Source of the DNA: Sphingobacteriales bacterium 16-39-50
Lineage (GTDB): Bacteria; Bacteroidota; Bacteroidia; Sphingobacteriales; Sphingobacteriaceae
Assembly (NCBI GenBank): GCA_002257025.1
Contig: NCHA01000014.1
Location: 4,669-68,668, forward strand
Reading direction: 5' to 3'
DNA: 64,000 bases
The position numbers and the translations under genes were made by a program. Shown in pieces: positions 16,701 to 39,455 of this stretch (the stretch's first letter is position 1; every line of letters begins with the position of its first letter). Under the pieces are notes generated by a model. It saw only the letters and a list, made by a program, of their open reading frames with translations, did not search any database and was not told the origin of the DNA.

Positions 16701-18562
16701 GATCTATTCAGGTTGAATCTGTTTCCGGGGGATTCGGTACCTATGAATACAGTATAAATGGCGGAATAAACTGGCAAAGCGGCACAAAATTCAGCGGCCT
16801 GCTTGCAGGAACCTACCAATTATATGTCAGGGATGCTGCTAGTCCCGAGTGTATCACAGTTATATCTCCTGACTATATTATTACTCAGCCTGCAGCCCCT
16901 ATTAGGTTAAGCTATATCCGCACAGATGTTTCATGCTTTGGTGGAAATAACGGTTCTATTAAGATTACAGCAGCCGGAGGAACAGCTCCATACACCTATC
17001 GATGGCAAGGTGGACAAATCACAAAAGATATAAGTGGCCTTGTTGCAGGGACCTATTCCCTTACAATAATAGATTCAAAGGGGTGTGAATACAATGAGTC
17101 TATTGCCATCAGGCAACCACCCACCCCTCTAAGTATCGCCTTTACCAAAATGGATGCAAGTTGCTTTGGCGCCAGAGATGGCAGTATTGAAATTAACGTT
17201 TCTGGTGGTACCTCACCTTATACTTATAAATGGTCAAATAATGAAACCACAAAAAACATACAGAATTTAGCCCCAAATATCAACTATTCGCTCTCGGTGA
17301 TTGATGCAAATGGATGTTCTGAAACAATTAATATACCAATATCTGAACCTGAAATCCTTAAGGCAGCACTAACAGTAAAAAATACGGTCTGTAAAACATC
17401 AATCGATGGGATGATTACTGCCTCAATCACCGGAGGTACAAAGCCATATGATCTGACCTGGAAAGGAAGCCCAATTAAAACCGATTTCATTGATAATCTT
17501 GCACCGGGAACGTATGAACTGTTTATAAAAGATGCTAAAGGATGTTCCCTGATAGTTTCTGCAGAAGTTCTTCAGGGAAGCTGCCCACCTATAGCCATTA
17601 ATGATCGTTTCAAAACCGATGAAGAAATTCCTGTATCAGGCAGTGTTGCCCCGAATGATTATGACCGTCAGGGAGAAAATATCAGTTTTTCACTTACATC
17701 AAATGCAAAAAATGGGACAATAACCTTTAGTCCCGATGGCAACTTCAGTTATACCCCAAATGTTGGATTCTGGGGAATTGAAGTAATCTCTTACCAGGTG
17801 TGCAATACTTCCGGAATGTGTGCTACAGCCTCCCTGATTATTGAAGTTATCCCTTTTACCATAGTTAGTCTGACACCCTCAACAAGCAATGTTTCTGAAG
17901 GTAAAAAAACAGCTATATCTGCAAGATTAATGCGGCCCTTCAGGGATGATGTAACTATCAGGCTAAGCTATCAGGGCCGGGCAAGGAAAGACCTTGATTA
18001 TGTACTATTGGATCAATACGTAAACATTAAGATTCCAAAAGGCAAGATTTCAACCACACAAAAAGTCACCCTGGCTGCATTAACAGATGATGAACAGGAA
18101 GGTGATGAAGATATTAATCTAACTATCATATCAACATCCGACCCACTTGTAAGAATTGGTACTGGTGCTGTAGTGACAATTAATGATGTCTATCCACCCT
18201 TACCAACCATCCCAATTACCACTAAAAATGATCCTCCTTTGAATCCGGACATCCTTCCCGATCCTTTGGTGTCCCCCAATAATGATGGACTTGGCAATGA
18301 ATTTTTTAAAGTTGAGAATATAGTTTCATTTCCTGACAACCTGGTTTTGATCTTCAATCGATGGGGGAATGAAGTTTTCCGTATGCCAGGATATAATGAA
18401 AGTGACAAGGTGTTTTCCGGATATGCCAATACCGGATTGCTCTCAAATACCAATGCTCCTCTAAGTGATGGAGTATATTATTACCTCATCACTACAAACC
18501 GGACGATAAATGGCCAAAAGGTTTCGGCGCTTAATAAAGGGTATCTGATTCTTAAACGATAA
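10721..18562 (+). CDS. Giant T9SS type-B (gliding-motility CTD) surface protein with PKD-like, SprB-like, Ig, cadherin-like and Calx-beta-like repeats
   Basis: Signal peptide; 11 xTWTNSNxxIGL PKD-like repeats plus one variant; SprB-like repeats; PIAINDRFKTDEE cadherin-like unit; CTD SPNNDG...IFNRWGNEVF...GVYYYLI...KGYLILKR. Confidence 0.88.
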   Translation: MMEVLRKLCLSLLITVAGYSKLFGQCTPNDIEFKGVDKIYNTACGDVSYQDIRATTPTGSGLSYQWEVSFKGENYTVVKNGINPIITPELAKSDITNHIIVPNSNASGDYRIRRLVNSTSGCSNYSEPVFLYYAQNSASLSGGTISGSLVTCTSTSGTLTLSGHTGPVLRWERAPVSTGIWENIDNTTNTYTYTNLSESYCYRAYVDNICDKNGTDLYSNTFCVTVNSTPIVTSAPQSQSVCLGSSLNLSVTASSPLTLTYQWRKDGTNINGQTASTLTLSSVGTTDAGSYDVIVSNSCGSTISNPAIIAVNPLPAVIVPANYSICPGTLTTATAFSSNPAGATYTWTNSNTAIGLPANGNGDIPAFTALNSGTTNISSTITVTPILNGCAGPSSSYIITVKPIPVVITPASFSVCSGATVSSTSFSSLPTGASYTWTNSNTSIGLAAAGSNNVPSFTAVNNTASPVSATITVTPTLDGCTGTPSTYTITVNPLPANILASAEGVTNCGISDGKITISATGSAPLQFSIDGGSTFFPNGGIFTNLSAGSYSVAVQNSTGCILVGPTLSVVSPNAPPTPDIFPTGGTVCEGSNLILTIQNPQPGAIYTWRGPSGYSYSGPETSRTIANISSSMAGEYGVTTTVNSCVSIARTFSITVNPLPVVTVPANLTYCAGALIPEGAFISTPAGATYSWTNSNPAIGLAASGNGNITPFFAVNNTISPITATITVIPTLNNCAGPPATFTITVNPRPTVILPADFAICSGASVPVSTFSSNISGTTYTWTNSNSSIGLASNGSGNLPAFSAVNNSTSPISAIITVTPYFNGCAGTASSFTITVNPLPNVNVPVNSTVCSGTSIPASGFSSSQPGTTFSWTNSNTAIGLTGSGSGTVPAFIATNTSAAMITANITVTPFLNGCAGPSSVYTISVNPLPAVTVPANIIVCSGTTVPASAFSSIPAGATYTWTNSNTAIGLAGSGIGNVSAFTAINNTLSPITSTITVTPTNNGCTGPVSSYTITVNPLPAMSQPANLVVCSGTTVTASNFASNISGTTYIWTNSNPAIGLSASGTGNIPSFTAINSSISVISATITVSPVSNGCPGQQLIYTITVNPLPAISTAIATPESQCNINDGTITITASGIQPLEYSINGGNTFVQNGGNFTGLAAGSYSVVVRNANGCIINGPTLSVSSPGAPPQPEINAYVSPVCQGEPLILSIMNPDPLATYTWTGPLGFSAIGASIIRSNSDPSMSGNYAVTATINACVSTSKIFNIKVDPKPTLIVPQSQNYCKGALVPAHVFNSTPPGATISWTNSNPAIGLPASGTGNIPSFTASNNTNTPITASISVTPSLNGCPGQTYTFTITINPLPTVTGPGNSVVCAGETVSAGNLINNIPATTYSWTNSNPAIGLPASGIGNVPSFIAANSSGSAISATITIIPSLNGCAGNPISYTITVNPLPVITTTLATNETACNLNDGTITITANGTQPLEYSIDGGSTFIQNGGKFTNLSAGSYSVVVKNASGCLLIGPTLSIASPGAPPKPAINPYVSPVCQGEPLVLSILNPDPLVTYKWTGPMGFTATGVSVTRPNSTTSMSGTYAVTGTLNSCVSVSKIFDIKVNPLPTLVVPQNQNYCKGVTVPESIFNSTPPGATISWTNSNPAIGLAASGSGNVPAFTATNNSLVPITATITAIPSLNGCNGLPYTYTITINPEPTVTVPLSFTICSGTKVSASSFGANIAGVNYTWTNSNATIGLAASGNGNVPEFTAVNTTSSAIQALITVTPTLNGCSGPSSSYIITVKPLPRLSNPFTQMLCTQSSSKEVELTSNIPGTTFTWTASAPATVSGYTQSGTNKIPIQFLTNSGSTPEFVTYTIIPVNNGCTGPESKYTILVNPLPTATLSGEKKACYGATSTLSVKLTGKAPWTISYTDGESSNTISGIGTSDYTFNVSSDSSRTYRITSVSDGNFCSNTGNGSTVIIQPLAAIKASASHINVDCYGSNTGSIQVESVSGGFGTYEYSINGGINWQSGTKFSGLLAGTYQLYVRDAASPECITVISPDYIITQPAAPIRLSYIRTDVSCFGGNNGSIKITAAGGTAPYTYRWQGGQITKDISGLVAGTYSLTIIDSKGCEYNESIAIRQPPTPLSIAFTKMDASCFGARDGSIEINVSGGTSPYTYKWSNNETTKNIQNLAPNINYSLSVIDANGCSETINIPISEPEILKAALTVKNTVCKTSIDGMITASITGGTKPYDLTWKGSPIKTDFIDNLAPGTYELFIKDAKGCSLIVSAEVLQGSCPPIAINDRFKTDEEIPVSGSVAPNDYDRQGENISFSLTSNAKNGTITFSPDGNFSYTPNVGFWGIEVISYQVCNTSGMCATASLIIEVIPFTIVSLTPSTSNVSEGKKTAISARLMRPFRDDVTIRLSYQGRARKDLDYVLLDQYVNIKIPKGKISTTQKVTLAALTDDEQEGDEDINLTIISTSDPLVRIGTGAVVTINDVYPPLPTIPITTKNDPPLNPDILPDPLVSPNNDGLGNEFFKVENIVSFPDNLVLIFNRWGNEVFRMPGYNESDKVFSGYANTGLLSNTNAPLSDGVYYYLITTNRTINGQKVSALNKGYLILKR

Positions 18563-18563
18563 T

Positions 18564-19616
18564 TTATATTATCTTATACTTCAGCACTTTATCATCTTCC
18601 CAGAAACAAATAGCTTTCCCGTTGTCCAGAATATAAATTTTGGGAGAAACACCGGAACCTAAAAGTGTAATTTTCTTTGTGTTTAGATTAATAGCACTTA
18701 GTATCTTTTTATCTTGCCAGGCAACATAAATCTCTTTCTTCTTTTGGGCCATACTTACATCACGGCCTGTGCTAAGTTTCAACTCTGCTTGATTTTCTGA
18801 CCAGTAATATACATCCCCATTGCGTCGCCACGCCGCTGAAACTTTTCCTTCAGAATTAAAGCCTAAGCTACCCCCATCCATCGGGCAAGCATTTAACTGC
18901 CATGTACCATTCCCTGATTTTGCGGCCTCTGAAAAGGATTTGCCCTTGTCGTATGAAACTGAATAATAAATATCCCGTGAACCCATCAGCCAGTTACGAA
19001 AACCAATGACAAGCTTATTACCGTTAAGTACAATATTTGGTTTACAGCACTCACAAACATGCTTATCCGGTGATTTATAAACCAGCGAATTCGCTTTCCA
19101 TTTAGCTGATTTACCATTGATCGAAGAAAAATATATATTATTTTTCCCACCCTCCCTGATATCCAGCCATGTTGCGTAAAAATAATCCTCTTTATCCGCT
19201 ACAATTGCCATTAATCCTTCCGGAGCCGCCCCCTTTTTATCATTTATTTCTGCAACGCGGGTCCATCCTCCTTTTGAGTGATTCAATCTGTAGGAATGAA
19301 TATTCCCTCCTTTATCCATTGCACTGATAAAAGAAAAATTCCTGGAAGAGGCAATTTGCGGGCCTCTTGTATGCCCCAAATGCATGCCGGGCAGTTCAGC
19401 AACAAGCACTGCCGAAGAGAAACTAATTCCATTATTTGTTGAAGTCAAACAATAAATCTTTTCTCCATTCCCGTAGGCAACGCGAATGACTCCTTTAGGG
19501 TCAATTGACAGATTGGGTTGCTGCCCCTGAATTATTCTTTCAGATAAGGCTGAATGCCCCGTGACCGAAATGCAGAAAAATATAAATAAATAAAACACCT
19601 TCATATCCTGAATCAT
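18564..19616 (-). CDS. Secreted BNR-repeat / sialidase-like beta-propeller protein (start may be MKVFY, 19604)
   Basis: Signal peptide; BNR boxes STNNGISFS and SYDKGKSFS; CECC and ACPMDGG motifs. Confidence 0.7.
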   Translation of the reverse strand: MIQDMKVFYLFIFFCISVTGHSALSERIIQGQQPNLSIDPKGVIRVAYGNGEKIYCLTSTNNGISFSSAVLVAELPGMHLGHTRGPQIASSRNFSFISAMDKGGNIHSYRLNHSKGGWTRVAEINDKKGAAPEGLMAIVADKEDYFYATWLDIREGGKNNIYFSSINGKSAKWKANSLVYKSPDKHVCECCKPNIVLNGNKLVIGFRNWLMGSRDIYYSVSYDKGKSFSEAAKSGNGTWQLNACPMDGGSLGFNSEGKVSAAWRRNGDVYYWSENQAELKLSTGRDVSMAQKKKEIYVAWQDKKILSAINLNTKKITLLGSGVSPKIYILDNGKAICFWEDDKVLKYKII

Positions 19617-19677
19617 TTCTAATGAATCAACAAGATATGAAAGTGTTTAGTATAAACCTTTAAAGTCTATAAAGCTA

Positions 19678-20514
19678 TTACAATTGAACAATAATGTTCA
19701 CATCCGAATCAAGCTTATTACGGGTTAAATCTAATTGATTTTCCAGATCGCTTACATTATTCTGAAGATCCAGAATCAGACCTTCACGACGTTGAACTTC
19801 CTGAGCACTAAGGTTTACTCTGCTGGTGTTCAGATTTGTTTTTACACCTAATAGCTTTTCCATTGCGTACTTTAAAAGCGATTCGCTATAAGACATGGTT
19901 TCATAGGTTTGCTCATAGGTATTATAAACCGTCTCACGTGATTGTATATATTCCTGGGACCAGCGGTCAGAATAATTATTGGAACAATTCCCTATTATAT
20001 CACCATGGTTCAAATGAGCCTGCACTGCGTTTTCAGAGACGTTTATAGTCACAGAATTACCAGAATCATTCCCCGAAGGATTATGGCAAATGCTAACTTT
20101 CTTTTGATTCTTTGGACGTTTACGCTCTGCCCAATTATTAATGCCCCAGTCAATATCGATATCCCTTTTTCCATTCATCAACTTACTATTACCCTTTCCC
20201 TTTTTTAACTCCCAATTGTCTCCTTCATCTCTATCGTTATTTTTCCCGGAATTGCCCTTATTATCATATTTACTATTATAGTGCTCATCCTTATCGCTTT
20301 TATCATTCCGGTCATTATTATCCTTATCCTGCTTGTTATCCTGCCCCTGGTTTTTATCCCCCTGATTTTTAACTCTGCCTTTTCCAATCTCATCGTTTTC
20401 TTTACCTTCTGATTTACCCTGTCCATTCTTATCCTTTTGCGGATCTGCCAGAGCCAGAAGTGTTAATACTATTAATGGAAGGATACTTATCCTTAAAATG
20501 TTATTTCTTTTCAT
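19678..20514 (-). CDS. Secreted hypothetical protein with K/D/N-rich region, Cys/His micro-domain and C-terminal coiled coil
   Basis: 278-aa ORF with signal peptide; motif KVSICH...AHLNHGD..GNC. Confidence 0.75.
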   Translation of the reverse strand: MKRNNILRISILPLIVLTLLALADPQKDKNGQGKSEGKENDEIGKGRVKNQGDKNQGQDNKQDKDNNDRNDKSDKDEHYNSKYDNKGNSGKNNDRDEGDNWELKKGKGNSKLMNGKRDIDIDWGINNWAERKRPKNQKKVSICHNPSGNDSGNSVTINVSENAVQAHLNHGDIIGNCSNNYSDRWSQEYIQSRETVYNTYEQTYETMSYSESLLKYAMEKLLGVKTNLNTSRVNLSAQEVQRREGLILDLQNNVSDLENQLDLTRNKLDSDVNIIVQL

Positions 20515-21651: not shown

Positions 21652-21683
21652 AAAAAAAGGGTACGCTGGCGTACCCTTTTTTT
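21652..21683. terminator. Bidirectional intrinsic terminator
   Basis: A7-GGGTACGC-TG-GCGTACCC-T7 between convergent DUF4382 and copZ genes. Confidence 0.9.
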
Positions 21684-21685
21684 AT

Positions 21686-21892
21686 TTAAATCCTTTCGGC
21701 TGTATATCCTGCCTTTTTTACAGCAGCAATTATTTCCGATTCTTTAAAATCTCCCTCAACAATCAGGGTTTTCTCGCTCGAATCAAGATCTACCTTCCAG
21801 TGATTCTCACCGGCAGTCTCGTTCAATGCCGGACCGACCTGAGCCAGACATCCGGTACATTTAATATTCGTTTTAAATTTAATTGTTTCCAT
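21686..21892 (-). CDS. copZ: Heavy-metal-associated (HMA) copper chaperone, CopZ-like
   Basis: 68 aa, NIKCTGC motif, AVKKAGY C-terminus; directly after the Cu ATPase. Confidence 0.8.
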   Translation of the reverse strand: METIKFKTNIKCTGCLAQVGPALNETAGENHWKVDLDSSEKTLIVEGDFKESEIIAAVKKAGYTAERI

Positions 21893-21919: not shown

Positions 21920-24184
21920 TTAATTAGACCTGAGTTTTAAAGCTTTTAATCTGAGACTATTACTGACCACAGAAACTGAGCTGAGTGCCATTGCTGCCCC
22001 GGCGATCATCGGATCAAGTAAAAAGCCATTGTAACTGTACAAGGCACCTGCCGCAAGCGGAATCCCAATAATATTGTAAATAAAGGCCCAGAACAGGTTT
22101 TGACGAATGGTTTGAACGGTTCTTTTTGAAAGTTTCAATGCCATGGGAATGGACTGCAGGTTAGAGGTAATCAGGGTGATCTTGGCAACATCCATGGCGA
22201 TATCTGAACCTTTTCCCATCGCAATACTCACATCTGCCTGCGCCAGGGCATGAGAATCATTGATCCCATCTCCTACCATTGCAACGACCTTCCCACCAGA
22301 CTGAAGCTGTTTAATGAAATCAGCCTTATCTGAGGGCATAACCTCAGCCCTGTAACTTTTGATACCCACTTCATTTGCTACAGCTGATGCTGTTTGTTTA
22401 TTATCTCCAGTAAGCATATGGACTTCAATACCCATTTCATGCAGTTGACGGATGGCTTCTTTTGAGGAATCCTTCACCTTATCTGCAACAGAAATAATAG
22501 CCAGTACTTTTTCCTGATCAGCAAAATAGATTACCGTATTGGCCTCATGTTGCTTTTTCTGTACATATTTTACCTGATCTGTAGTCAAAAATATATTTTG
22601 CTCTTCCATAAAATGGATATTCCCGGCGAAAAATCCAATCCCATTTTGTATTCCTCTCACTCCCCGGGCTGTGATACTTTCGAACGAATCAAGTGTAACA
22701 CCTGAAATTCCATCCTCTTTTAATTTCATAATTATTGCATCAGCAAGAGGATGCTCAGAATTTACTTCCAGGCTGAACAAAACCTTTAAATAATGATCCT
22801 GATTCTTAATTTCAGGAGCCCAATTCATCGAGGTAACCACTGGCTTGCCCTCAGTGATGGTACCAGTCTTATCAAGAATGACTGCATTAACCTTATAGCC
22901 CAATTCAAGACTTTCGGCATCCTTGATAAGGATATTATTTTCAGCACCCTTACCAACCCCAACCATAATGGCTGTTGGGGTTGCCAGCCCTAAAGCGCAT
23001 GGACAAGCAATGACAAGTACAGTTACCGAAGTAAGTAAAGCATGTGAAAATGCTTGTTCCCCACCTATTAACATCCAGACAGCAAATGTCAGAATCGAAA
23101 TACCTATTACTACCGGAACAAATATTCCCGCTATCTTATCCACCAGCTTTTGAACCGGAGCTTTACTTCCCTGGGCCAATTGGACCATTTTCACGATATG
23201 CGCCAGCAAGGTATCAGCTCCTACTTTTTCGGCTTTAAAATGGAGACTCCCCTTCTGATTAATCGTACCTGCAAATAATTTGTCATTCACTTCTTTCAAT
23301 ACTGCGATCGGTTCACCGCTGATCATGCTTTCATCCAGATAAGATGATCCTGAAACCACAACACCATCTACTGAGACTCTTTCCCCTGGTCTCAGGACAA
23401 TAATCTGACCGGGCATGACCTGTGAAACAGGGATCTCTTCTTCCTTATCATTCAGGAGAATCCGAACCGTTTTAGGCTGTAATCCCATTAATTTTTTAAT
23501 GGCTGTTGTCGTATTCGACTTAGCTTTCTCTTCCAGTAATTTCCCGAAGGATATAAATGCTATAATCACAGCAGCAGCCTCATAATATACATGCGGATGT
23601 ATCCCCCTGTTATGCCAGTATTCAGGGTAGATCGTATTAAATGCGCTGAAAACATAAGCGATTCCAGTGCTCAGAGCCACTAAAGTGTCCATATTCACCA
23701 TCCCATGCTTAGCCTGCTTCCAGGCATTAATAAAGAAGTTTCGGCCAAACCAGAACAGGACGGGAGCGCTCAGTATCATAGATATCCATGTACCATATGG
23801 CATTTCCATGAAAAACATCCCGATTATAAATACAGGTAAGGCAAGAATCGAAGCCCATATCGTCCGAATTCTTAGCTCCCGGTAGCTTTTTATCTGTAAA
23901 GTTTCCTGCAGCTCTGCTGAATTCTCAGTATCGATAATAATATCATATCCAATTGATTGAATACTTTTTTGTAAAGCTGGCGGATTGGTTTTCAGAGTAT
24001 CATACTCTGCCCATGCTGTATTATTCGCAAAATTTACTCCTGCATCAATTACTCCTACTGTAGCTTTAAGCATAGATTCTACACTGATTGCACATCCGGC
24101 ACAGGTCATGCCTGTTACAGGAAACACTGCTCTGATTGTTGTGTTAGAAGCTTCTTTTAATTGAGATTCTGGTTCTTCGTTCAT
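21920..24184 (-). CDS. copA: Cu(I)-translocating P1B-1 ATPase
   Basis: N-terminal GMTCAGC, TM CPC, DKTGT, GDGIND, and YN / MALSS TM signatures. Confidence 0.93.
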   Translation of the reverse strand: MNEEPESQLKEASNTTIRAVFPVTGMTCAGCAISVESMLKATVGVIDAGVNFANNTAWAEYDTLKTNPPALQKSIQSIGYDIIIDTENSAELQETLQIKSYRELRIRTIWASILALPVFIIGMFFMEMPYGTWISMILSAPVLFWFGRNFFINAWKQAKHGMVNMDTLVALSTGIAYVFSAFNTIYPEYWHNRGIHPHVYYEAAAVIIAFISFGKLLEEKAKSNTTTAIKKLMGLQPKTVRILLNDKEEEIPVSQVMPGQIIVLRPGERVSVDGVVVSGSSYLDESMISGEPIAVLKEVNDKLFAGTINQKGSLHFKAEKVGADTLLAHIVKMVQLAQGSKAPVQKLVDKIAGIFVPVVIGISILTFAVWMLIGGEQAFSHALLTSVTVLVIACPCALGLATPTAIMVGVGKGAENNILIKDAESLELGYKVNAVILDKTGTITEGKPVVTSMNWAPEIKNQDHYLKVLFSLEVNSEHPLADAIIMKLKEDGISGVTLDSFESITARGVRGIQNGIGFFAGNIHFMEEQNIFLTTDQVKYVQKKQHEANTVIYFADQEKVLAIISVADKVKDSSKEAIRQLHEMGIEVHMLTGDNKQTASAVANEVGIKSYRAEVMPSDKADFIKQLQSGGKVVAMVGDGINDSHALAQADVSIAMGKGSDIAMDVAKITLITSNLQSIPMALKLSKRTVQTIRQNLFWAFIYNIIGIPLAAGALYSYNGFLLDPMIAGAAMALSSVSVVSNSLRLKALKLRSN

Positions 24185-24201
24185 AATCTTGATTTACAAT
24201 A

Positions 24202-24261
24202 CAAAATTATGATATACAGGCGATTAGGCTTTACAGAATTACGGGGAAGAGTTATACAATT
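24202..24261 (-). promoter_or_regulatory. copA promoter with paired direct-repeat operator
   Basis: -7 element TAATTTTG (24202-24209); minus-strand repeats AATTCTGTAA (24231-24240) and AATTGTATAA (24252-24261), 21-bp period. Confidence 0.65.
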
Positions 24262-24276
24262 ATGTGTTTATTTTGG

Positions 24277-24849
24277 TTAAACCTTGTCAATTGATTTTCT
24301 CTGCCCCTCTGAAGCTCTGGTACTTTTAAATTGAGATGGGGTTTGGCCAGTTACTTTCTTGAACTGGGCAGATAGATGGGCAATACTGCTGTAACCTAAT
24401 TTATTTGCAATTTCACTGAGATTCAATTCATCATAAAACAAGAGCTCTTTAACCCGCTCAATTTTCTGGCGAATAATGTATTGCTCAATAGTAACACCCT
24501 CAACAGAAGAAAATAAGGAGCTTAAATAACCATACTCATGAAATATCTTATCAGAAATAAGCCCTGACCAGTTTACTTTTTGTTCCAGAAACTCTGTATG
24601 GAAGATCTTTTCAATGATTAGATTTTTGATCTGTTCAATTACCCTGCTCTTACCCTTATCCAGTAACTCAAATCCGAGAGCATTCAAATGATTGTTCAGG
24701 ATCAGAAGTTTTTCATCATCAAGTTTCTCCTCCTCCAACTTCACAATACCCATTTGTACATCTATGGGATGCAAATCAAGTTTTAACAGCTCATTTTGAA
24801 CTGCGGTTATGCATCTGTTGCATACCATGTTTTTGATATATAATTCCAT
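24277..24849 (-). CDS. AraC-family regulator with N-terminal HMA-like metal-binding domain
   Basis: N-terminal KNMVCNRC; C-terminal double HTH (YLSSLFSSVEGVTIEQY, LSEIANKLGYSSIAHLSAQFKKVTG). Confidence 0.88.
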   Translation of the reverse strand: MELYIKNMVCNRCITAVQNELLKLDLHPIDVQMGIVKLEEEKLDDEKLLILNNHLNALGFELLDKGKSRVIEQIKNLIIEKIFHTEFLEQKVNWSGLISDKIFHEYGYLSSLFSSVEGVTIEQYIIRQKIERVKELLFYDELNLSEIANKLGYSSIAHLSAQFKKVTGQTPSQFKSTRASEGQRKSIDKV

Positions 24850-24853
24850 AATT

Positions 24854-26056
24854 CTACATTTTGTTCATATCATGTCCCGCCATCGGATCTGTACCCTTTT
24901 TCAAAATAAATTCACTCGATAACAAATATGCACCGCTCACTACTACCTCTTTCACATTTTCAAGGCCTGAAAGGATAATGATCTGTTCGGCATCCTCCTC
25001 ACCCGTACGTACCATCCTCGGGGAGTAGGTATTCTCCGCCGTTTTGATCCAAACATGTGCCCCCTGTTCATCACGCACCACTGCATCCAATGGTAAACTC
25101 AAAGCATCTGATATCTCGGCAAGCGGTAAAAACACAGTAGCATGCATACCTGCCTGTAAATTCCCAGGATTTTTAATCGGGGCTCTTACTTTCAGAATCT
25201 GCGAAGTTGGGTCCATCTGTGGAGAAATGAAATCTATAGTTAGAGTCTGCTCTTTATCACTGATCCCATTAATAGAAGCCTGTACCTTTGTACCCAGACG
25301 GATATTTCCCAATTCATTCGGATAGACATCCATTTCCAGCCAGAGTTGTGTGAAATTTTCAAGTTTTAAAATCTGACTGCCTTCGGATAAATATTGCCCT
25401 TCCGAAACATTCAGTTCGGTGACAATTCCTGATGCTGATGAATAGACAGTGAGCAATGGAGCTGTTTTTCCTGCGGTAGTCAACGCACGGATCTGAGCAT
25501 CAGAATAGCCAAACAAGCGAAGTTTATTTTTTGCTGCCTCCCGCATCGACTGATATATCTTCTCCTCCGGAAATGCCGCAACCTGTTTCAGTTGCAATAA
25601 ATAGTCCTGCTGCAGGGTCTGAAGTTCCTCGCTGTAGATCTGGAAAATCGGCTGGCCTTTACTAACAGACCGGCCCATTTCTTTCACAAACAACTTCTCA
25701 ATTCTTCCGGCATATCGGCTGGAAATAACTTCTGTCTGCTCCGGATTTATAATCAACCGGCCATTCAACACTTTTGAGGTACTGAAGTCAGTACGATTGA
25801 TTACCATAGTATGAATATTAGCCAACTGAATCTGACTTTCACTCAGGGATAGCTCATTTTTCCCGCCTGCAGAATTTACCGGTACCAAATCCATTTTACA
25901 TATCGGACAGGTCCCAGGACCATTATTAACTATCTGAGGATGCATTGGGCAGGTATATTTCCCTGCCTCAGCATGCTTTTCATGCTCCTCAGTACAGGCA
26001 GAGAAAATAAATCCTGAACAAAGAATGATCAGCCCTAAAATTATTTTTGTTCTCAT
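24854..26056 (-). CDS. CusB-like RND membrane fusion protein with heavy-metal-binding domain (copy 2)
   Basis: Lipobox FSAC, YTCPMHP...CPICKMDL, MFP hairpin, C-terminal DPMAGHDM. Confidence 0.88.
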   Translation of the reverse strand: MRTKIILGLIILCSGFIFSACTEEHEKHAEAGKYTCPMHPQIVNNGPGTCPICKMDLVPVNSAGGKNELSLSESQIQLANIHTMVINRTDFSTSKVLNGRLIINPEQTEVISSRYAGRIEKLFVKEMGRSVSKGQPIFQIYSEELQTLQQDYLLQLKQVAAFPEEKIYQSMREAAKNKLRLFGYSDAQIRALTTAGKTAPLLTVYSSASGIVTELNVSEGQYLSEGSQILKLENFTQLWLEMDVYPNELGNIRLGTKVQASINGISDKEQTLTIDFISPQMDPTSQILKVRAPIKNPGNLQAGMHATVFLPLAEISDALSLPLDAVVRDEQGAHVWIKTAENTYSPRMVRTGEEDAEQIIILSGLENVKEVVVSGAYLLSSEFILKKGTDPMAGHDMNKM

Positions 26057-27390
26057 TATAAACGCTTTGCTTTTATAAAACTTTCACTATCTATCAGAAA
26101 CCAGGCGTTAAGTGCCAGTTCCGCATCCGCTTCAAGGCTATCACCAATATCGATCCACTGATCTGCCTGATGCTTCAGCTTCACAAAAACCGGTACAAAT
26201 GCATTATCTTTCTTAACGAATGCCACATATTGTGTTCCAACCTGAACAAGCGCTGTAGCGGGTAGCCAGTAACCTTCAACTGCAGCCTCCCGGCTTACTG
26301 AAATCAGTTGACCAACCTTCCAGATTTTAATACTATTGGGAACATTGGCCCTGATTAGAGAATAATTGGTGCCGTCCTTAAAATAGGGCTGAACCAAGCT
26401 CACTGTTACTTCTGAACGCTGATCTGCAAGATCAATAGACTGAACCATGACACTTTTCCCCTGATTAAACTCCTGCAATTGATCCGGGCGGGCAAAGAAC
26501 TCGGCCCAAACCTGGTCTGTATTGATCAGATCAAATATTTTCTGGCCTGCATTGATATATTGTCCTTCCCTGATTTGCAAAGCCCCACCAGTAGGGATAT
26601 CCGGTATTTCCGGAACTATTGCTGATGAAGCAGAAGCATTCATTGAATTCATACCAACTCCGCTTCCTGAACTGATCTTTGTTCCACTTGCCTGGCTTAC
26701 CGAACCCTGAGAAGCCGGGGTACTTAAACCCAATTCAGCCACATAACCTGAATAAGGACTATAAACAGCAATTCTATCCTCGATTCTGCCTGTACTCAGA
26801 ACCCTGTTTATCTGAGCCATGCTCAATCCAAGAAGTACCAATTTCTTCTTAGCTGATTCAAGAAGCATGGGTTCGTTATTGTTTTTCAGAAAGAGCAATT
26901 CCTGCTGGGCATTTGCCAGATCCGGACTGTAAATCTCCATTATCTTTTGTCCTTTACTAACAGGCTCATAATTGTATTTCACAAACAGCTTTTCAATGCG
27001 ACCGCTTACCCTTGCCGATACTGCCCTCCAGTTATTCGTATTATAGTTTATGATTCCTTTCAGAACGATTTCAGATTTTTTAAGACCCTTCTCAACCCTG
27101 ATCGTTTTTATTCCCGATATAACCAGCTCATTGCTGGGCTTTACTAAGGAATTTAAACTTGTATCCACGGCGCCATGTGTATCTGCATTATGCTGTGGCA
27201 CAAGATCCATTTTACAGATTGGACAGGTACCTGGTGCATCCTTCACTATCTGAGGGTGCATTGGGCAGGTGTATTTCTGAACCTGTCCTCCGGAACCTGC
27301 CTTTTTATCGAAATTACAAGCCAAAATTGATAATCCGATGATCAGGAATAATGCAATTCTAGCGTTCAATAGTCTTCTCATATTCCACAA
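26056..27390 (-). CDS. CusB-like RND membrane fusion protein with heavy-metal-binding domain (copy 1; start probably 27381)
   Basis: Lipobox ILAC, YTCPMHP...CPICKMDL, GRIEKLFVK, YSPDLANAQQELL. Confidence 0.88.
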   Translation of the reverse strand: MWNMRRLLNARIALFLIIGLSILACNFDKKAGSGGQVQKYTCPMHPQIVKDAPGTCPICKMDLVPQHNADTHGAVDTSLNSLVKPSNELVISGIKTIRVEKGLKKSEIVLKGIINYNTNNWRAVSARVSGRIEKLFVKYNYEPVSKGQKIMEIYSPDLANAQQELLFLKNNNEPMLLESAKKKLVLLGLSMAQINRVLSTGRIEDRIAVYSPYSGYVAELGLSTPASQGSVSQASGTKISSGSGVGMNSMNASASSAIVPEIPDIPTGGALQIREGQYINAGQKIFDLINTDQVWAEFFARPDQLQEFNQGKSVMVQSIDLADQRSEVTVSLVQPYFKDGTNYSLIRANVPNSIKIWKVGQLISVSREAAVEGYWLPATALVQVGTQYVAFVKKDNAFVPVFVKLKHQADQWIDIGDSLEADAELALNAWFLIDSESFIKAKRL

Positions 27391-28606
27391 TCATTTGATA
27401 ATATTTCTGTAACTGATCCAGGTAATTCATCTGCGACATATTGATCGATTCCCAACCATCGATGACCGTATTCAAATCTGTTTTGTTTTCCTGATAGGAT
27501 AACATCGAAACCTTGAGGTATTTCTCCAATGAAGGCAAAATCTTAGTCTCATAATTAGTTAACTGCTCCTGCATGTTGAGCAGATCATTTTCCATAGACT
27601 TACTCATCCCCAAAACCTCGGTAAGCATTGCCGCTTTTTCCTGCCTCATAGCCTCCTTCTCAAAATTCATTGATTTGATCTCCGATTTATACATTTTCGA
27701 GGACCAGGGAGCAATTGGAATGGAAAGCATACCCATCACTGTAAATTGCCTTGGCATCATTGCAGAATAATTAGACATATGGTCAAAACGAATTTTAAAA
27801 TCGGGTTTTGACTCCTGCCGCATCAGATCAATATTCCTTTCCATCGCATGAATATCATGCTCCATGTGCAAAATATCGCTCCGGGCACCGGCCAGATAAG
27901 CAGTATCAAGATCTGCTTTAGGACTAAACTTAACCTTATATTCGGTTTCAATTTCAAATTCTGCTGTTGCTGCTCTGTTCATCAATGCATTCAAAGCAAT
28001 CTTTTTTGAACGAATATCTGCCTCAGTCATCAGGATCATATTCTCTGACTCATAGGCCCTTCCCTCAGCTTTAAAAACCTGATTCAATCCACCCTGATTA
28101 AAGGGATAACGAATCTCTGCAAGCTTTTTCATTGTATGCATGATCTGCTGATTTTCCTTCTGGAAGACGATACGCTTTTGAGCTACTAAAAGTCCGAAGT
28201 ACAAATACTTGGCAGCAGCTCTCAATTGGTTAAAACGCTCTGCTCTACCCAACTCATAGGTCTGCGACTGAGTTTTAAGGTATTCTTTTTTAGCCCTGAC
28301 CTTTGCGGGATTGGGAATATCCTGTTCGGCAGAGATCATAAATGCCCCGCGGTCGCCATCAGCGATCATCCCCTGTGCGGGATAAGGACTCATAAAAGTT
28401 CCTGCTCCTACCATTGGAGCCATCCATGAGCCGGCACCTTCCACTTTAGAATCCTTGCTTTGAATCCTGCTCGAATAAGACTTCAAAGAGGGATTATTTG
28501 CGTTAATTTCGGCTAATATTTGCTCCAGATTCATAATCTCCTGTCCGTAGACAGTGAAAGAACTCAGGAATACAAACAATAAAAATATCTTCTTAATGCT
28601 GAACAT
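27359..28606 (-). CDS. TolC/CusC-family outer-membrane channel, Met-rich
   Basis: Signal peptide from MFSIKK (ATG at 28606 overlaps the upstream stop); OEP repeats (NNPSLK, SMLSYQENKTDL). Confidence 0.85.
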   Translation of the reverse strand: MFSIKKIFLLFVFLSSFTVYGQEIMNLEQILAEINANNPSLKSYSSRIQSKDSKVEGAGSWMAPMVGAGTFMSPYPAQGMIADGDRGAFMISAEQDIPNPAKVRAKKEYLKTQSQTYELGRAERFNQLRAAAKYLYFGLLVAQKRIVFQKENQQIMHTMKKLAEIRYPFNQGGLNQVFKAEGRAYESENMILMTEADIRSKKIALNALMNRAATAEFEIETEYKVKFSPKADLDTAYLAGARSDILHMEHDIHAMERNIDLMRQESKPDFKIRFDHMSNYSAMMPRQFTVMGMLSIPIAPWSSKMYKSEIKSMNFEKEAMRQEKAAMLTEVLGMSKSMENDLLNMQEQLTNYETKILPSLEKYLKVSMLSYQENKTDLNTVIDGWESINMSQMNYLDQLQKYYQMIVEYEKTIER

Positions 28607-30533
28607 CGTGTACCTCCAGTTTTCCAAATTTTCTCAATTCATATTCTTTTGTCATCAGAAAGATCAGCGGCGTAACCAGTAAAATATGGGTGGAGGAAGT
28701 AAGTACTCCCCCAATCATAGGCAGAACAATTGGCTGCATCACATCGCTTCCAACCCCACCCGACCATAAAACTGGTATCAAACCAAACAATGCTACACAA
28801 ACCGTCATGATCTTGGGCCGTAAACGCTTGGCAGCTCCATTGATCACATATTCTCTCAGATCTTCCTTTGTAATCGTTTCACTGGAATTGCCTTTCAAAG
28901 CAACTAACTGCCTCATTGCATCATTCAAATAAATCACCATCACAACACCTGTTTCAACGGCAATTCCGAAAAGGGCAATAAAACCAACCGCTACTGCAAC
29001 TGAGAGATTCACACCCCAGAAATAAACCAGGAAAGCACCTCCGATAAGGGCGAAAGGAATGGTCACCAGACTTAAAAATGCCTCTCTGATCGATTTAAAA
29101 GCAAGATAAAGTGCCAGAAAGATGATAAAAATCACTACAGGCAGAATATAGATCAGGGTTTGCTGTCCGCGGATCAGATTTTCATACTGACCGCTCCATT
29201 CTACAAAATATCCATTTGGCAGTTTCAGATCCTTATTCAACTTATCAATAGCCTCCTGAACTGTATGTCCCAGATCGCGCTCACGCACATTGAACATTAC
29301 AGCACCCCGTAAAATTGCATTTTCAGAACTGATCATCGGCGGTCCATCCACAAAACGGATGGCGGTAACGGCTGATAGTGGTATAGTTCCCGCATCAGGA
29401 GAAGTCAATGGAATTCGTTTCAAACGGTCGATACTGTTTCGGTATTCCTGACCTAAGCGCAAATGAATATTAAACCGTTGCCGGCCTTCTACTGTTGATG
29501 CAAAAGGCGCACCCCCAATTGCCGATTCAACTGTCGCATTAATATCATCCACAGTTAATCCATAACGCTCCAACTGGTCGCGTCTGATGTCAATCTCCAG
29601 GTATTTTCCACCACTAACAGGCTCTACATACAGATCCTTCACTCCTTCAATATTCTTCAGCATAGTATGCACATCTTCAGAAATATGGCTGATCTGTTTA
29701 AGATCTTGACCATAAACCTTGACACCAACATCAGTACGGATACCTGTTGAAAGCATATTGATACGGTTGATGATAGGCTGTGTCCAGCCATTCACCACAC
29801 CGGGTATCTGAAGTTTGGCATCTAACTCATCAATGATATCTTTTTTGCTGATTCCGGGTCTCCACTCACTTTTTGGTTTCAGCGAAATGATGGTTTCGAT
29901 CATGCTGATTGGCGAATTATCAGTTGCTGAACTTGCCCGGCCAGCCTTGCCCAAAACATGGTCGACCTCCGGCACTGATTTGATGATCTTATCCTGAACC
30001 TGCAGAATTCGCTTGACCTCTGAATTGGAAACATCAGGCAATGTAACCGGCATAAACAAAATCGATTGCTCATCCAGGGGTGGCATAAATTCCCGTCCAA
30101 GGCTCATCAGCATCGGAACAGAGATTAGCAATGCCAGAATATTAACCCCAAGTGTAGTTTTTCTATTTCTGATACAGGCCCGGATCACCGGAAGGTAAAC
30201 CTTCTCCAAACCTCGGTTGATCGGGTTCTCATGCTCCTGACGGAAACGCCCTTTCATGAAAAATGAAATAATTACGGGAGCCAGTGTAAGCACCAGTACC
30301 GCATCGATTATCAGAATAAAGGTTTTGGTATAGGCCAGCGGATGAAATAACTTCCCTTCCTGCCCGGTAAGTAAAAATACTGGCAGAAATGAGGTGATAA
30401 TAATGATTGTTGAATAAAATACACCTCTTGATACCTGTTGACAGGCTTTTTCGATGATACTTAGTCTTTCCTCGTTAGAAAGTTTAACGTATTCATCATT
30501 CTTTTTTAGTTTCGACTTATTCCACATCTGCAT
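28593..30533 (-). CDS. cusA: CusA/SilA-type RND permease, C-terminal part (TM5-TM12)
   Basis: TSFLPVFLLTGQEGKLF, RLRPKIMT; Met triad equivalents in ILFMP, ISMIET, INMLSTG. Confidence 0.85.
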   Translation of the reverse strand: MQMWNKSKLKKNDEYVKLSNEERLSIIEKACQQVSRGVFYSTIIIITSFLPVFLLTGQEGKLFHPLAYTKTFILIIDAVLVLTLAPVIISFFMKGRFRQEHENPINRGLEKVYLPVIRACIRNRKTTLGVNILALLISVPMLMSLGREFMPPLDEQSILFMPVTLPDVSNSEVKRILQVQDKIIKSVPEVDHVLGKAGRASSATDNSPISMIETIISLKPKSEWRPGISKKDIIDELDAKLQIPGVVNGWTQPIINRINMLSTGIRTDVGVKVYGQDLKQISHISEDVHTMLKNIEGVKDLYVEPVSGGKYLEIDIRRDQLERYGLTVDDINATVESAIGGAPFASTVEGRQRFNIHLRLGQEYRNSIDRLKRIPLTSPDAGTIPLSAVTAIRFVDGPPMISSENAILRGAVMFNVRERDLGHTVQEAIDKLNKDLKLPNGYFVEWSGQYENLIRGQQTLIYILPVVIFIIFLALYLAFKSIREAFLSLVTIPFALIGGAFLVYFWGVNLSVAVAVGFIALFGIAVETGVVMVIYLNDAMRQLVALKGNSSETITKEDLREYVINGAAKRLRPKIMTVCVALFGLIPVLWSGGVGSDVMQPIVLPMIGGVLTSSTHILLVTPLIFLMTKEYELRKFGKLEVHDVQH

Positions 30534-31821
30534 TTCCTCCTTTTCTTTGTTCGTTTAATTCTGCCTGCCTGACTGCAAGGTTTTTGTAAGAATTCTCTGC
30601 CATGATGATTCCGTTATCGACAATCACACCAATCGCCAGTGCGATACCGGTTAATGACATGATATTCGATGAAATATCAAATGCATTCAGCAAAATGAAA
30701 CTGGCAGCAATGGTGATTGGGATCTGAATGATGATGCTGATGGCACTTCTCCAGTGAAAGAGGAAAATGATAACGATCAGAGATACCACGATCATCTCTT
30801 CGATCAGGGTAGTTTTAATGGAAGATATTGATTCTGCAATCAATTCACCCCGGTCGTAAACAATATTGAACTTCATCCCCTGGGGTAAACCCTTAGCTAC
30901 TTCAGTCATTTTTGTCTTCACTTTGCGGATCACTTCATCGGCATTCTCACCATAACGTAATACCACAATCCCTCCAACCGCTTCTCCTTCACCATTATAA
31001 TCGAAGATGCCGAGACGGCTTTCTCCGGCCATCTGAACGGTTCCGATATCCCTGATCTTCACAGGAATAGAGTTTTGAGTTCTTACCGCAAGATTTTCGA
31101 TCTCTTCAATAGATTTAAGGTAACCACTGGTTTTAATAATATAACCGATGCCACTCATCTCAAACTTCCTTCCTCCGGCCTCATTATTATTACTCTTTAC
31201 TGCCCGCATTACATCCTGAATACTAAGCTTATAGTAAGTCAGACGGTTCGGGTCAATACTGATCTGATACTGTTTCTGGAAACCACCAAATGAAGCGATC
31301 TCACTCACTCCTGCTACATTCTGAAGGGCAAATTTGATGTACCAGTCCTGAACAGCCCGCTGCTCTCCAAGATCCATTCCCGGAGCTTCGAGGGTGTACC
31401 ATAGTACATGACCGACTCCGGTTCCATCGGGGCCAAGCGTCGGACTAACACCTTCGGGCAAAACATTGCCGATTGAATTGAGGCGCTCCAATACCCTGGA
31501 CCGTGCCCAGTAAACATCCACATCATCTTCAAAAATGATGTAGATAAAACTCATTCCGAACATGGAATTGGCACGCACATAATTCACTTTGGGCAATCCC
31601 TGAAGATTAGTAACCAAAGGGTAAGTGATCTGATCTTCAATGATCTGCGGACTACGTCCCATCCATTCAGTGAAAACGATGACCTGATTTTCCGAAAGGT
31701 CCGGAATAGCATCAATCTTACTCGTCTTGACCGAATAGAGTCCCCATCCAAAAAATCCGGCTGCAAAAAGCAAGACAATGAAACGGTTCCTTAAAGAAAA
31801 GGAAATGATCTTTTCAACCAT
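30517..31821 (-). CDS. cusA: CusA/SilA-type RND permease, N-terminal part (TM1-TM4)
   Basis: MVEKIISFSLRNRF, DAIPDLSENQVIV, GPDGTGVG, GIALAIGVIVDNGIIMAEN; ends shortly after TM4. Confidence 0.85.
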   Translation of the reverse strand: MVEKIISFSLRNRFIVLLFAAGFFGWGLYSVKTSKIDAIPDLSENQVIVFTEWMGRSPQIIEDQITYPLVTNLQGLPKVNYVRANSMFGMSFIYIIFEDDVDVYWARSRVLERLNSIGNVLPEGVSPTLGPDGTGVGHVLWYTLEAPGMDLGEQRAVQDWYIKFALQNVAGVSEIASFGGFQKQYQISIDPNRLTYYKLSIQDVMRAVKSNNNEAGGRKFEMSGIGYIIKTSGYLKSIEEIENLAVRTQNSIPVKIRDIGTVQMAGESRLGIFDYNGEGEAVGGIVVLRYGENADEVIRKVKTKMTEVAKGLPQGMKFNIVYDRGELIAESISSIKTTLIEEMIVVSLIVIIFLFHWRSAISIIIQIPITIAASFILLNAFDISSNIMSLTGIALAIGVIVDNGIIMAENSYKNLAVRQAELNEQRKGGNADVE

Positions 31822-31826
31822 TTTGC

Positions 31827-32090
31827 TTAGTGCTTATGATCGTGACTGCTGCTATCAGTCATCATGCTGTCTGACTTGATATCCGAATCTTTAACAAGAT
31901 CCATTTTGCAGATTGAACAAGTACCCGGTTTGTCGCTTGTTATTTCAGGGTGCATCGGACATGTATATCCTACTCCTGCAGTTTGGCTGGTTAATGAATC
32001 AGTTTTTGCTTCTGCTGGTTTTTCTGAGCTATTGCATGCAGCGCTGAATAAAAGAACCATAATTGCGATTGAATAAATTAATTTTCTCAT
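31827..32090 (-). CDS. Small heavy-metal-binding-domain (HMBD) lipoprotein with His-rich tail
   Basis: Start moved to MRKLI (32090); lipobox SAAC; YTCPMHPEITSDKPGTCSICKMDLV; tail SHDHKH. Confidence 0.85.
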   Translation of the reverse strand: MRKLIYSIAIMVLLFSAACNSSEKPAEAKTDSLTSQTAGVGYTCPMHPEITSDKPGTCSICKMDLVKDSDIKSDSMMTDSSSHDHKH

Positions 32091-32227
32091 GACGATAATA
32101 TTTATTGTTAATAATAAAATGAATAGATGCGATAATTCATCGAATGAATAATACTCCGATGAGTCTATCAGAATAAAAAGCATACGAAATCAGTCCGAAA
32201 GGAAATCAGACCAGAAGGAAATAAAAA

Positions 32228-32623
32228 TCAGATACGGAAATTACAGTTTCGAATGAAAACAGCAGTTTTCAATGTTCGTGGAGGAGCATTACTCTCAGGA
32301 ATCAGATCCGCAGGAGTGTTTGGCAGTATTTTGGTAAAGTCAGGATAAGTGACAGGTGCTAAAGAAAAAACTATAGGTTGAAAGGTACTTAGCGGAGCTT
32401 TTTGAGATTCCTTTAGCTTATATTCCTGTTTCTGATCTTTACAACAGTCCTCAGAAAGGCCCTTCTTCATGCCGCAATTGCTGCAATTGGCTGCTTTTTC
32501 TGACTTGTCACCAGAAAGCCCCCACTCGATCAGCTCTCCCATACAATAATGGAAATGCACAGTCGCCCCGGATGAAACACCCAGGTAGAATACAGCTAAA
32601 ACGGTGATTAAAAGCCTTTTCAT
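32228..32623 (-). CDS. HYC_CC_PP family protein
   Basis: HFHYC, CSNCGM, CCKD and NAPP motifs; first gene of the metal-efflux operon. Confidence 0.8.
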   Translation of the reverse strand: MKRLLITVLAVFYLGVSSGATVHFHYCMGELIEWGLSGDKSEKAANCSNCGMKKGLSEDCCKDQKQEYKLKESQKAPLSTFQPIVFSLAPVTYPDFTKILPNTPADLIPESNAPPRTLKTAVFIRNCNFRI

Positions 32624-32634
32624 GTAATTGATTA

Positions 32635-32694
32635 CAAAGATTGGTATAAAATTCTGATATATTTTATATAATTTTTTGAAATGTTTATAGAATT
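32635..32694 (-). promoter_or_regulatory. Promoter of the efflux operon with direct-repeat operator
   Basis: -7-like AATCTTTG (32635-32642); repeats AATTATATAA (32664-32673) and AATTCTATAA (32685-32694) at 21-bp period; third copy AATTTTATAC at 32644-32653. Confidence 0.6.
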
Positions 32695-32775
32695 TGGTTT
32701 TTGTCTTTACTGTCCATATAGCTAGCGCAGCCCCTCCAACGGATTGTCGAATGTTGAAGAGCCCCTCCTAAGCTG

Positions 32776-39006: not shown

Positions 39007-39441
39007 TCAGTCAAGAATTATGTTCAGTCCCTGTTCTCTGAGTTTTTCCAATCCGTCCTTAATTGCTTTAATTTGTTCGGGGCTGCGTCCCTGCCAGACA
39101 GTTACTTCGCCGATTACTTTAAACGGATGTTTCGAACGGTAAGACATAGTAGGATTACCGGGAAACTTTTTATCTGTTACATTTGGATCATCTTCTATAT
39201 CGCCTGTTGCCTCTACCAAAAAAATTCCTTCCCTACCGTTGCCTGAAGCAAGTTCTGCTCCCAAAACAGCCGTATTCAATGTAGATGAGACATAAACATG
39301 CTTAAGCTCTCTGTCCTCATAGTTGGATTTAAAGCCAACTGTTATCAAATCCCCAATCTTCAGCTCAGCCTTTGTCCCGTGAAAATATGTTTGGGCAAAA
39401 GGAGTTGCGATATGAGAGTTGTTCTTATCTTCTTTGCTCAT
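39007..39441 (-). CDS. arr: NAD(+)-rifampin ADP-ribosyltransferase
   Basis: YFHGTKA, SNY, GAELA, EDDPNVTDKKFPGNPTMSYRS; His, Tyr and Asp catalytic positions retained. Confidence 0.88.
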   Translation of the reverse strand: MSKEDKNNSHIATPFAQTYFHGTKAELKIGDLITVGFKSNYEDRELKHVYVSSTLNTAVLGAELASGNGREGIFLVEATGDIEDDPNVTDKKFPGNPTMSYRSKHPFKVIGEVTVWQGRSPEQIKAIKDGLEKLREQGLNIILD

Positions 39442-39455
39442 TGTAGTTATTAGGT

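Follow-up and report, generated by a model that had tools for sequence, protein, structure and literature searches.

A predicted tandem-repeat operator of a putative copper-responsive HMA-AraC regulator in Sphingobacteriales bacterium 16-39-50 and other Bacteroidota

Known bacterial copper sensors include CueR of the MerR family, CsoR, CopY, two-component systems, ComR and CorE. Regulators of the AraC/XylS family use tandem half-sites of about 17-20 bp, the promoter-proximal one adjoining or overlapping the -35 element. The I1-I2 sites of AraC and the Om sites of XylS at the Pm promoter are direct repeats with a period of 21, and their proximal copy overlaps -35. HMA domains with an MxCxxC motif bind Cu(I), and the methionine at -2 is a signature of Cu(I) chaperones. 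For Bacteroidota, a 2023 survey of copper signalling in marine bacteria registered no homologues other than those of two-component systems and ECF sigma factors (PMC10141476). Here we analyse a 64,000-nt stretch of Sphingobacteriales bacterium 16-39-50 (contig NCHA01000014.1, positions 4,669 to 68,668), which carries copA, a Cus-type efflux operon and, between them, the gene of an AraC-type protein with an N-terminal HMA-like domain (HMA-AraC). The whole stretch is referred to as the window; all coordinates are window positions, and both promoters of interest are read on the minus strand.

With a probability of roughly 75%, we take HMA-AraC to be a one-component Cu(I) sensor which would activate both copA-copZ and the efflux operon via a tandem-repeat operator. 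Direct reading of the sequence shows two repeats in each promoter: AATTGTATAA (24261..24252) and AATTCTGTAA (24240..24231) in front of copA, AATTCTATAA (32694..32685) and AATTATATAA (32673..32664) in front of the efflux operon. The copA -7 element, TAATTTTG (24202..24209 (-)), starts 19 nt past the end of the operator and lies 17 nt before the copA ATG. The efflux -7 element, AATCTTTG (32635..32642 (-)), is likewise 19 nt past the operator end and lies 11 nt before the ATG; its first base departs from TAnnTTTG, the -7 type of Bacteroidota. The TTTG of the former is invariant in an alignment of copA promoters (A2), that of the latter in an alignment of HYC promoters. The regulator and copA are separated by 92 bp, and this gap holds both the operator and the promoter. 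An earlier reading of the same DNA (the original prediction) had placed both repeat pairs and both -7 elements at these positions, with the repeats 21 bp apart from start to start and a difference of 29 between the low coordinates of the proximal repeat and the -7 element; all of this holds in both promoters.

Taken alone, the 10-mer AATTNTRTAA shows no enrichment across the window (7 matches, 4.3 expected), and its other single matches (1017, 11908 and 16564) were discarded as isolated half-sites occurring at chance frequency. The composite of two such 10-mers separated by N11 has exactly two matches in the window, with 0.00 expected from 100 shuffles, and allowing up to two mismatches returns the same two sites only (0.13 expected).

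The original prediction called for motif discovery in the copA upstream regions of other genomes. A scan of one genome per species gave 80 loci with relatives of the regulator (1.41 Mb). Every class of Bacteroidota is represented (Sphingobacteriia, Chitinophagia, Cytophagia, Flavobacteriia and Bacteroidia), and Bacteroides ovatus, Prevotella and Dysgonomonas are among the source organisms. The training set comprised the 38 of these 80 loci where a CopA of at least 50% identity is encoded on the same strand and starts no more than 1.5 kb downstream; the window was excluded. Gibbs sampling of the 38 copA upstream regions yielded one 34-bp motif, AAATCTTAYAA-N10-nAATnnYRTAAcA, found in every one of them and built of two directly oriented AATnnYRYAA copies with a period of 21. 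The motif and the spacing noticed in the window are therefore conserved in other genomes.

When the 64-kb window was scanned on both strands with the matrix derived from the other genomes (threshold 8 bits), only two matches were found. They are the operator of the HYC_CC_PP/Cus efflux operon, AAATTCTATAA-N10-AAATTATATAAAA (32662..32695 (-), 24.6 bits), and that of copA, TAATTGTATAA-N10-GTAATTCTGTAAAG (24229..24262 (-), 24.3 bits), both of which also match the composite 10-mer pattern exactly. In the Daejeonella relatives L202 and L204 (loci are given by their L numbers), whose regulators are 87% and 80% identical to that of the window, both operators are kept while the spacers have diverged. 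The efflux operator, two direct-repeat half-sites with a period of 21, is identical in L202 and conserved in L204; the copA operator stands out as a phylogenetic footprint in alignment A2, and in alignments A2 and A3 the footprint consists of the distal half-site, the proximal half-site and the TTTG.

Over the 80 loci the same matrix gave 104 matches of at least 14 bits, compared with one in shuffled sequence, and 100 of the 104 share the strand of the regulator. The site starts no more than 150 nt past the regulator stop codon in 56 of the 80 loci and overlaps this codon in 23 of the 56. This indicates that the repeats are a conserved binding site, predicted to belong to the adjacent regulator. 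The central claim of the original prediction, that the adjacent HMA-AraC would control both promoters via repeats spaced 21 bp apart and lying over -33, gains strong support from comparative genomics at phylum level.

The regulator (190 aa, 24277..24849 (-)) starts 4 nt past the second cusB gene. An HMA-like domain (residues 2-63) and a helix (66-84) are followed by a two-HTH DNA-binding domain (approximately 78-178). The latter matches Pfam HTH_18 (E 1.6e-16) and HTH_AraC (E 2.1e-11), as is characteristic of AraC/XylS proteins. In the AlphaFold2 model of the protein (pLDDT 86, pTM 0.72) it forms a seven-helix domain, with YesN, AraC, GadX, AdpA and MarA among the Foldseek matches (target-normalised TM 0.75-0.87). 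Judged by its DNA-binding domain, in sequence and in the model, the regulator is a member of the AraC/XylS family.

The N-terminal domain is modelled with the beta-alpha-beta-beta-alpha-beta fold (E2-6, H11-23, E28-32, E35-38, H45-57, E61-63; pLDDT 86-93), and Foldseek relates it to Atx1 (2xmv, target-normalised TM 0.69), NmerA and CsoZ. A profile of 18 homologues compared with the sequences of the PDB matches residues 2-63, along their whole length, to HMA domains from ATP7B, ATP7A, CopZ, CopA and ZntA (E 0.003-0.7). The motif NMVCNRC (residues 7-13), which includes M-x-C-x-x-C, is situated at the junction of beta1 and alpha1. C10 and C13 are invariant in the 18 aligned homologues together with the surrounding IKNMVCxRC, and M-x-C-x-R-C is kept in all of the approximately 37 members of the regulator family among 40 sampled representatives of the N-terminal domain (36-57% identity).

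With the full-length sequence as query, more than 7,800 related proteins were retrieved; the N-terminal domain alone gave 940 clusters at 50% identity, nearly all of which are either fragments or about 190 aa in length. Members of the family occur in gut bacteria (Bacteroides, Prevotella, Dysgonomonas), in fish pathogens including Tenacibaculum, and in Sphingobacteriia, Chitinophagia and Cytophagia from the environment. The original prediction knew of no characterised example, and neither do the sources consulted here. Searches of the open-access literature, which took in the B. thetaiotaomicron fitness paper, turned up no characterised HMA-AraC copper regulator; the family is without an NCBIfam model; source names are generic ("AraC family" or "helix-turn-helix domain-containing"); and Foldseek found no solved structure covering both domains.

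Some family members occur as tandem paralogues, 37-49% identical to the window protein: L002 (10001-11134), L004 (10001-11199) and L006 (5356-6540). The operator is located after or between them. Such pairs may reflect divergence in metal specificity or the formation of heterodimers. The regulator of Empedobacter brevis (L031) is encoded, as an identical protein, on 65 contigs from at least three Bacteroidota taxa, and in L205, a Daejeonella relative, a regulator-copA cluster (18028-19754) has a MerT-HMA gene and genes of a conjugative transposon (TraM, DUF4138) beside it. Mobile elements seem to carry parts of the HMA-AraC regulon.

The first gene past the 104 sites codes for a CopA-like ATPase in 51 cases, HYC_CC_PP in four, the regulator or its paralogue in four, and CusA and CusB in one each. 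The remaining 43 downstream genes have no match to window proteins; Pfam scanning of eight representatives found CopZ-like HMA proteins of 68-81 aa, an HMA-MauE membrane protein, an ArsP-type permease with a C-terminal HMA domain and a CDF transporter. The site at the HYC/efflux promoter is also present in L019, L041, L068, L074, L202 and L204, with weaker versions in L001 and L062. A separate operator-like site (15.1 bits, correct -7 spacing) was noticed in L205 (3600-9306) in front of genes for DUF3347 proteins, a haem-binding protein, a 950-aa multicopper oxidase with HMBD, and DUF305. This cluster would extend the putative regulon to periplasmic copper oxidation.

Promoter geometry was analysed in a set of about 80 sites scoring at least 20 bits, using the best nAnnTTTG element of each. 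The -7 box starts exactly 20 nt past the end of the motif in 59 of these sites and 19 nt past it in six; both window sites use the 19-nt spacing. Base counts after the motif show A at +22 in 66 of 75 sites and T, T, T and G at +25 to +28 in 72, 73, 66 and 66 of 75. The 20-nt stretch between the motif and the -7 box is unconserved and contains no TTTG in the sites of at least 20 bits. A conserved -33 TTTG was found neither inside nor beside the proximal half-site of the regulated promoters. The distance from the site to the ATG is mostly 44-64 nt. Given the fixed distance to the -7 box, the proximal half-site takes up the position that a -33 element would have in Bacteroidota promoters. That an unconserved spacer is kept at a fixed length argues for a bound protein which has to be positioned relative to RNA polymerase, the layout known from AraC at I1-I2 and XylS at Pm. 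The putative operator is a conserved bipartite motif with a period of 21 and a fixed distance to the -7 box, linked to the regulator gene throughout the phylum.

From the motif and its specificity, the promoter geometry, the gene linkage, the folds and the conserved cysteines, all of them in silico results, we infer DNA binding, a Cu(I) signal, activation rather than repression, a way of switching by copper and autoregulation. Two regulator molecules would bind head to tail to the 34-bp operator with its two 10-11-bp half-sites (AATnnYRYAA) 21 bp apart. The promoter-proximal half-site would sit at the -33 position, separated by 19-20 nt from the downstream -7 box of TAnnTTTG type. Binding of Cu(I), and probably of Ag(I), at the Cys10/Cys13 CxxC site would lead to activation of class II type, in which the bound regulator stands in for the missing -33 contact. 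Copper could arrive directly or from a CopZ-like chaperone of the same regulon. The switch itself may take one of two forms; like delivery by the CopZ-like protein, both agree with known properties of HMA domains. Cu(I) could bridge the CxxC motifs of two HMA domains into a dimer filling both half-sites; Cu(I)-bridged HMA dimers are formed by Atx1 and Hah1. Alternatively, copper could relieve a contact between the HMA and DNA-binding domains in an autoinhibited state.

Several observations weigh against this scheme. No site of at least 14 bits is present in 13 of the 80 loci. The missing -33 element is weak evidence of activation, since promoters of Bacteroidota conserve it only to a moderate degree. 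The CDF, ArsP-type and HMA-MauE targets, together with the tandem paralogues, suggest that some family members are not copper-specific. Finally, Pfam HMA (PF00403) does not match the regulator at E up to 1e-3, missing its gathering threshold; it matches three of the 18 homologues, at E 0.016 or worse, and the NCBIfam CopZ model gives E 0.015 with the regulator, below the curated threshold. The N-terminal domain appears to be a very divergent HMA, and because Pfam HMA misses its threshold, the predicted metal binding rests on fold and motif. The N-terminal CxxC HMA domain of the original prediction is thus upheld by fold, profile and invariant CxxC but not by Pfam at curated thresholds.

The same regulator and operator might also serve repression or dual control, with the apo form blocking RNA polymerase at -33 and Cu(I) releasing the block, in the manner of CopY or CsoR. 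We consider this unlikely. That the operator overlaps the core promoter at -33 suits a repressor, and some AraC-family members do repress, but direct repeats of 21 bp overlapping -35 match the arrangement of the activators AraC, XylS and MelR. A constant distance to the -7 box would also be expected if the operator merely had to cover -33, yet such base-pair precision in an unconserved 20-nt spacer, seen at 59 of about 80 sites, is what activators that must touch RNA polymerase typically show. Likewise, the -33 element is not obligatory in Bacteroidota, but promoters devoid of a -33 TTTG should be weak without a factor.

Control of these promoters by the regulator in response to a signal other than Cu(I), such as Hg, Cd, Zn, Pb or oxidation of the CxxC thiols, appears still less probable. 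The dominant target is CopA with the Cu(I)-type motifs CPC, YN-x4-P and M-x2-SS, and the remaining targets are Cus-type pumps with HMBD and CopZ-like proteins, to which L205 adds a multicopper oxidase cluster with a site. The CxxC sites of HMA domains accept several soft metals, and CDF, ArsP-like and HMA-MauE regulon members in other genomes, as well as the MerT-HMA gene near the regulator in L205, would suit a broader signal. As to the sensor motif itself, the conserved arginine in C-x-R-C is atypical of copper chaperones, but M-x-C-x-x-C with its methionine at -2 is their Cu(I) signature.

The specificity of the operator was also evaluated in the reverse direction, by searching metagenome contigs for exact matches to the IUPAC operator pattern, of which there were 121. 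Those with TTTG at the right distance (n=42) have a mean score of 31.6 bits; 38 are intergenic, 20 have the regulator directly upstream and 26 have a metal gene downstream. The matches lacking such a TTTG (n=79) average 19.7 bits; 44 of them are inside long open reading frames (ORFs), two have the regulator directly upstream and six a metal gene downstream. The bare IUPAC pattern was rejected as a specific operator finder at metagenome scale, 79 of its 121 matches being low-scoring and without a -7 box; the operator pattern combined with the -7 geometry is specific. The repeats might, alternatively, have nothing to do with HMA-AraC and be either a general trait of AT-rich promoters or the target of another, unlinked factor, as the AT-rich region, the unenriched lone 10-mer and the many chance matches of the bare pattern (79/121) might suggest. 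This is very improbable in view of the 104 matches against one in shuffled sequence, the strand bias (100/104), the position directly past and often over the regulator stop codon (56 of 80 loci, from every class of Bacteroidota), downstream genes that are almost all metal genes, and a repeat geometry which is that of AraC-family dimers.

The original prediction also proposed positive feedback by an operator upstream of the operon that ends with the regulator gene. Gene order in the window agrees with this: the efflux operon closes with the regulator gene here as well as in L202 and L204, the L202 operon having an extra P-type ATPase gene before the regulator. No exact TAnnTTTG was found in the 250 nt upstream of the regulator. 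A positive feedback loop is plausible in this genome and in the close relative L204, a conclusion that rests on gene order. As a general feature of the family autoregulation was discarded, with only L007 among the 80 loci having a site upstream of the regulator. A search for RNA sequencing runs found none with the window or the B. ovatus locus; two were found for a Bacteroides locus, with fragmentary contigs of related organisms.

The efflux operon has the order HYC_CC_PP-HMBD-cusA(split)-cusC-cusB-cusB-regulator, all on the minus strand; from the HMBD gene to the regulator the genes overlap or are separated by no more than 5 nt. The first gene (32228..32623 (-)) codes for an HYC_CC_PP family protein with a signal peptide (NCBIfam NF047658, E 1.7e-11), orthologues of which carry Pfam DUF8199. 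It is followed by a small HMBD lipoprotein with the motif YTCPMHP...CSICKM (118-aa ORF, 31827..32183 (-), Pfam PF19335, E 9.5e-15). Judging by the gene calls in L202 and L204, this protein probably starts at an internal MRKL and has 87 aa. The gap past HYC_CC_PP, about 137 bp given the internal start, contains no operator-like site.

The CusA-type RND pump is encoded in two parts, an N-terminal one of 434 aa (30517..31821 (-), ACR_tran 1-419, Pfam E 1.2e-105) and a C-terminal one of 646 aa (28593..30533 (-), ACR_tran 415-1019, Pfam E 5.5e-127). The two ORFs (28593-31821) are in different frames and overlap by 17 nt. The same stop and restart, in a cytoplasmic loop, occurs in five other genera (L002, L007, L015, L062 and L064), including two isolate genomes, and an assembly error was ruled out on these grounds; distant cusA genes, whose products are at most 44% identical, are single ORFs. 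By this comparison the cusA split is natural and conserved. Further downstream are genes for a CusC-like outer-membrane factor (27359..28627 (-), Pfam OEP, E 7.6e-20) and two CusB-like periplasmic adaptors with an N-terminal HMBD (26056..27390 (-), Pfam HlyD_D23 and HMBD; 24854..26056 (-), Pfam HlyD_D23 and HMBD, TIGR01730 E 1.1e-37).

Past the regulator, with no terminator-like site between the two genes, copA codes for a P1B-type Cu(I)-exporting ATPase (21920..24184 (-), Pfam E1-E2_ATPase, Hydrolase and HMA). Its translation contains an N-terminal HMA with GMTCAGC in addition to the Cu(I)-pump motifs given above. A CopZ-like HMA protein of 68 aa, recognised in translation by KFKTNIKCTGC, is encoded 27 nt past copA (21686..21892 (-)); an orthologous 68-aa protein matches Pfam HMA (E 4.7e-8), and the gene also comes after copA in L202, L204 and L205. 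The two genes are probably co-transcribed. The unit is closed by an intrinsic terminator-like hairpin (21652..21676 (-), GGGTACGC..GCGTACCC followed by T7). The copZ-like gene and the terminator fall outside the region covered by the original prediction.

Pfam found no MerR domain in any of the module proteins, and the genes of 18.5-40 kb include no CsoR/RcnR fold, no BlaI/CopY winged helix and no histidine kinase-response regulator pair. HMA-AraC was predicted to be the only regulator here and to differ from CueR, CsoR and CusRS. The domain scan of 18.5-40 kb bears this out: it is the sole DNA-binding protein of the module, the domains of the three other systems are not found, and the operator is a direct repeat upstream of a -7 box. 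Metal motifs of the CxxC/HMBD type are confined to the copper module within the 64 kb, and the genes around it have no connection with metals. A rifampin ADP-ribosyltransferase (Arr-ms, E 7e-43) is encoded at 39007-39914 (-) directly downstream of a MarR-family regulator gene and is unrelated to the copper module. A 2613-aa ORF (10721-18562 (+)), the L202 orthologue of which has SprB, PKD, Ig-like and CHU_C domains, likely encodes an adhesin of the gliding-motility or cell-surface kind. Metagenome runs from mine drainage and aquatic sites contain window positions 24100-24900 at 100% of the sampled words, and a metal-rich habitat is consistent with a large copper-export module.

If an HMA domain is indeed wired directly to an AraC domain, this would be a new sensor family with a defined operator and a predictable regulon. 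A broader proposal, which we hold at even odds, is that HMA-AraC proteins form an uncharacterised metalloregulator family and are the main means by which Bacteroidota sense cytoplasmic Cu(I), with class II activation of copA, copZ and Cus-type pumps. Regulon annotation would be possible at once across a very large protein family. The findings also suggest a compact copper-inducible promoter-regulator pair for Bacteroidota genetic tools and would provide a simple system for studying how metal binding by an HMA fold is converted into transcription activation.

Among known systems, HMA-AraC has the C-terminal two-HTH domain in common with the AraC/XylS class II activators (AraC at the araBAD I1-I2 sites, XylS at Pm, MelR and RhaS). 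It is predicted also to share with them an N-terminal sensing domain and two direct-repeat half-sites with a period of 21, the proximal one overlapping the upstream promoter element. They sense with a cupin or another sugar/effector domain, whereas HMA-AraC, about 190 aa in all, has a 65-aa HMA-like domain, would operate at a -33/-7 promoter of the Bacteroidota type, and its ligand would be a metal ion. The new element would be an AraC-type regulator with a sensor domain of a metal-binding type, in effect a new metalloregulator family.

CueR, the MerR-family activator of copA in Proteobacteria, is a cytoplasmic one-component regulator which has a two-cysteine Cu(I) site and switches on copA and further copper-export genes, as HMA-AraC is predicted to do. 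However, CueR has an unrelated fold with an N-terminal MerR winged helix and untwists DNA at a palindrome inside an overlong -35/-10 spacer of 19-20 bp, whereas HMA-AraC has no MerR domain and its putative tandem-repeat operator lies upstream of and over the -33 position. CopY/CopZ of Enterococcus hirae and CsoR likewise control operons of the copA-copZ type, and in the HMA-AraC regulon, too, a CopZ-like chaperone could pass Cu(I) to the regulator. CopY and CsoR are repressors with a winged-helix or four-helix-bundle structure, and only HMA-AraC has the HMA module built into the regulator.

Archaeal regulators of the CopR/CopT type (HTH-TRASH) also have a small cysteine-containing metal module fused to a DNA-binding domain and are encoded beside copA and a metallochaperone gene; they differ in having an Lrp/wHTH-like rather than an AraC domain, TRASH instead of HMA, and in belonging to another domain of life. 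In Ada, an AraC-family DNA-binding domain is switched by cysteine chemistry in a small N-terminal metal-containing domain, as would be the case in HMA-AraC. But the zinc of Ada is structural, its signal is cysteine methylation, and it is neither a metal sensor nor a protein with an HMA fold.

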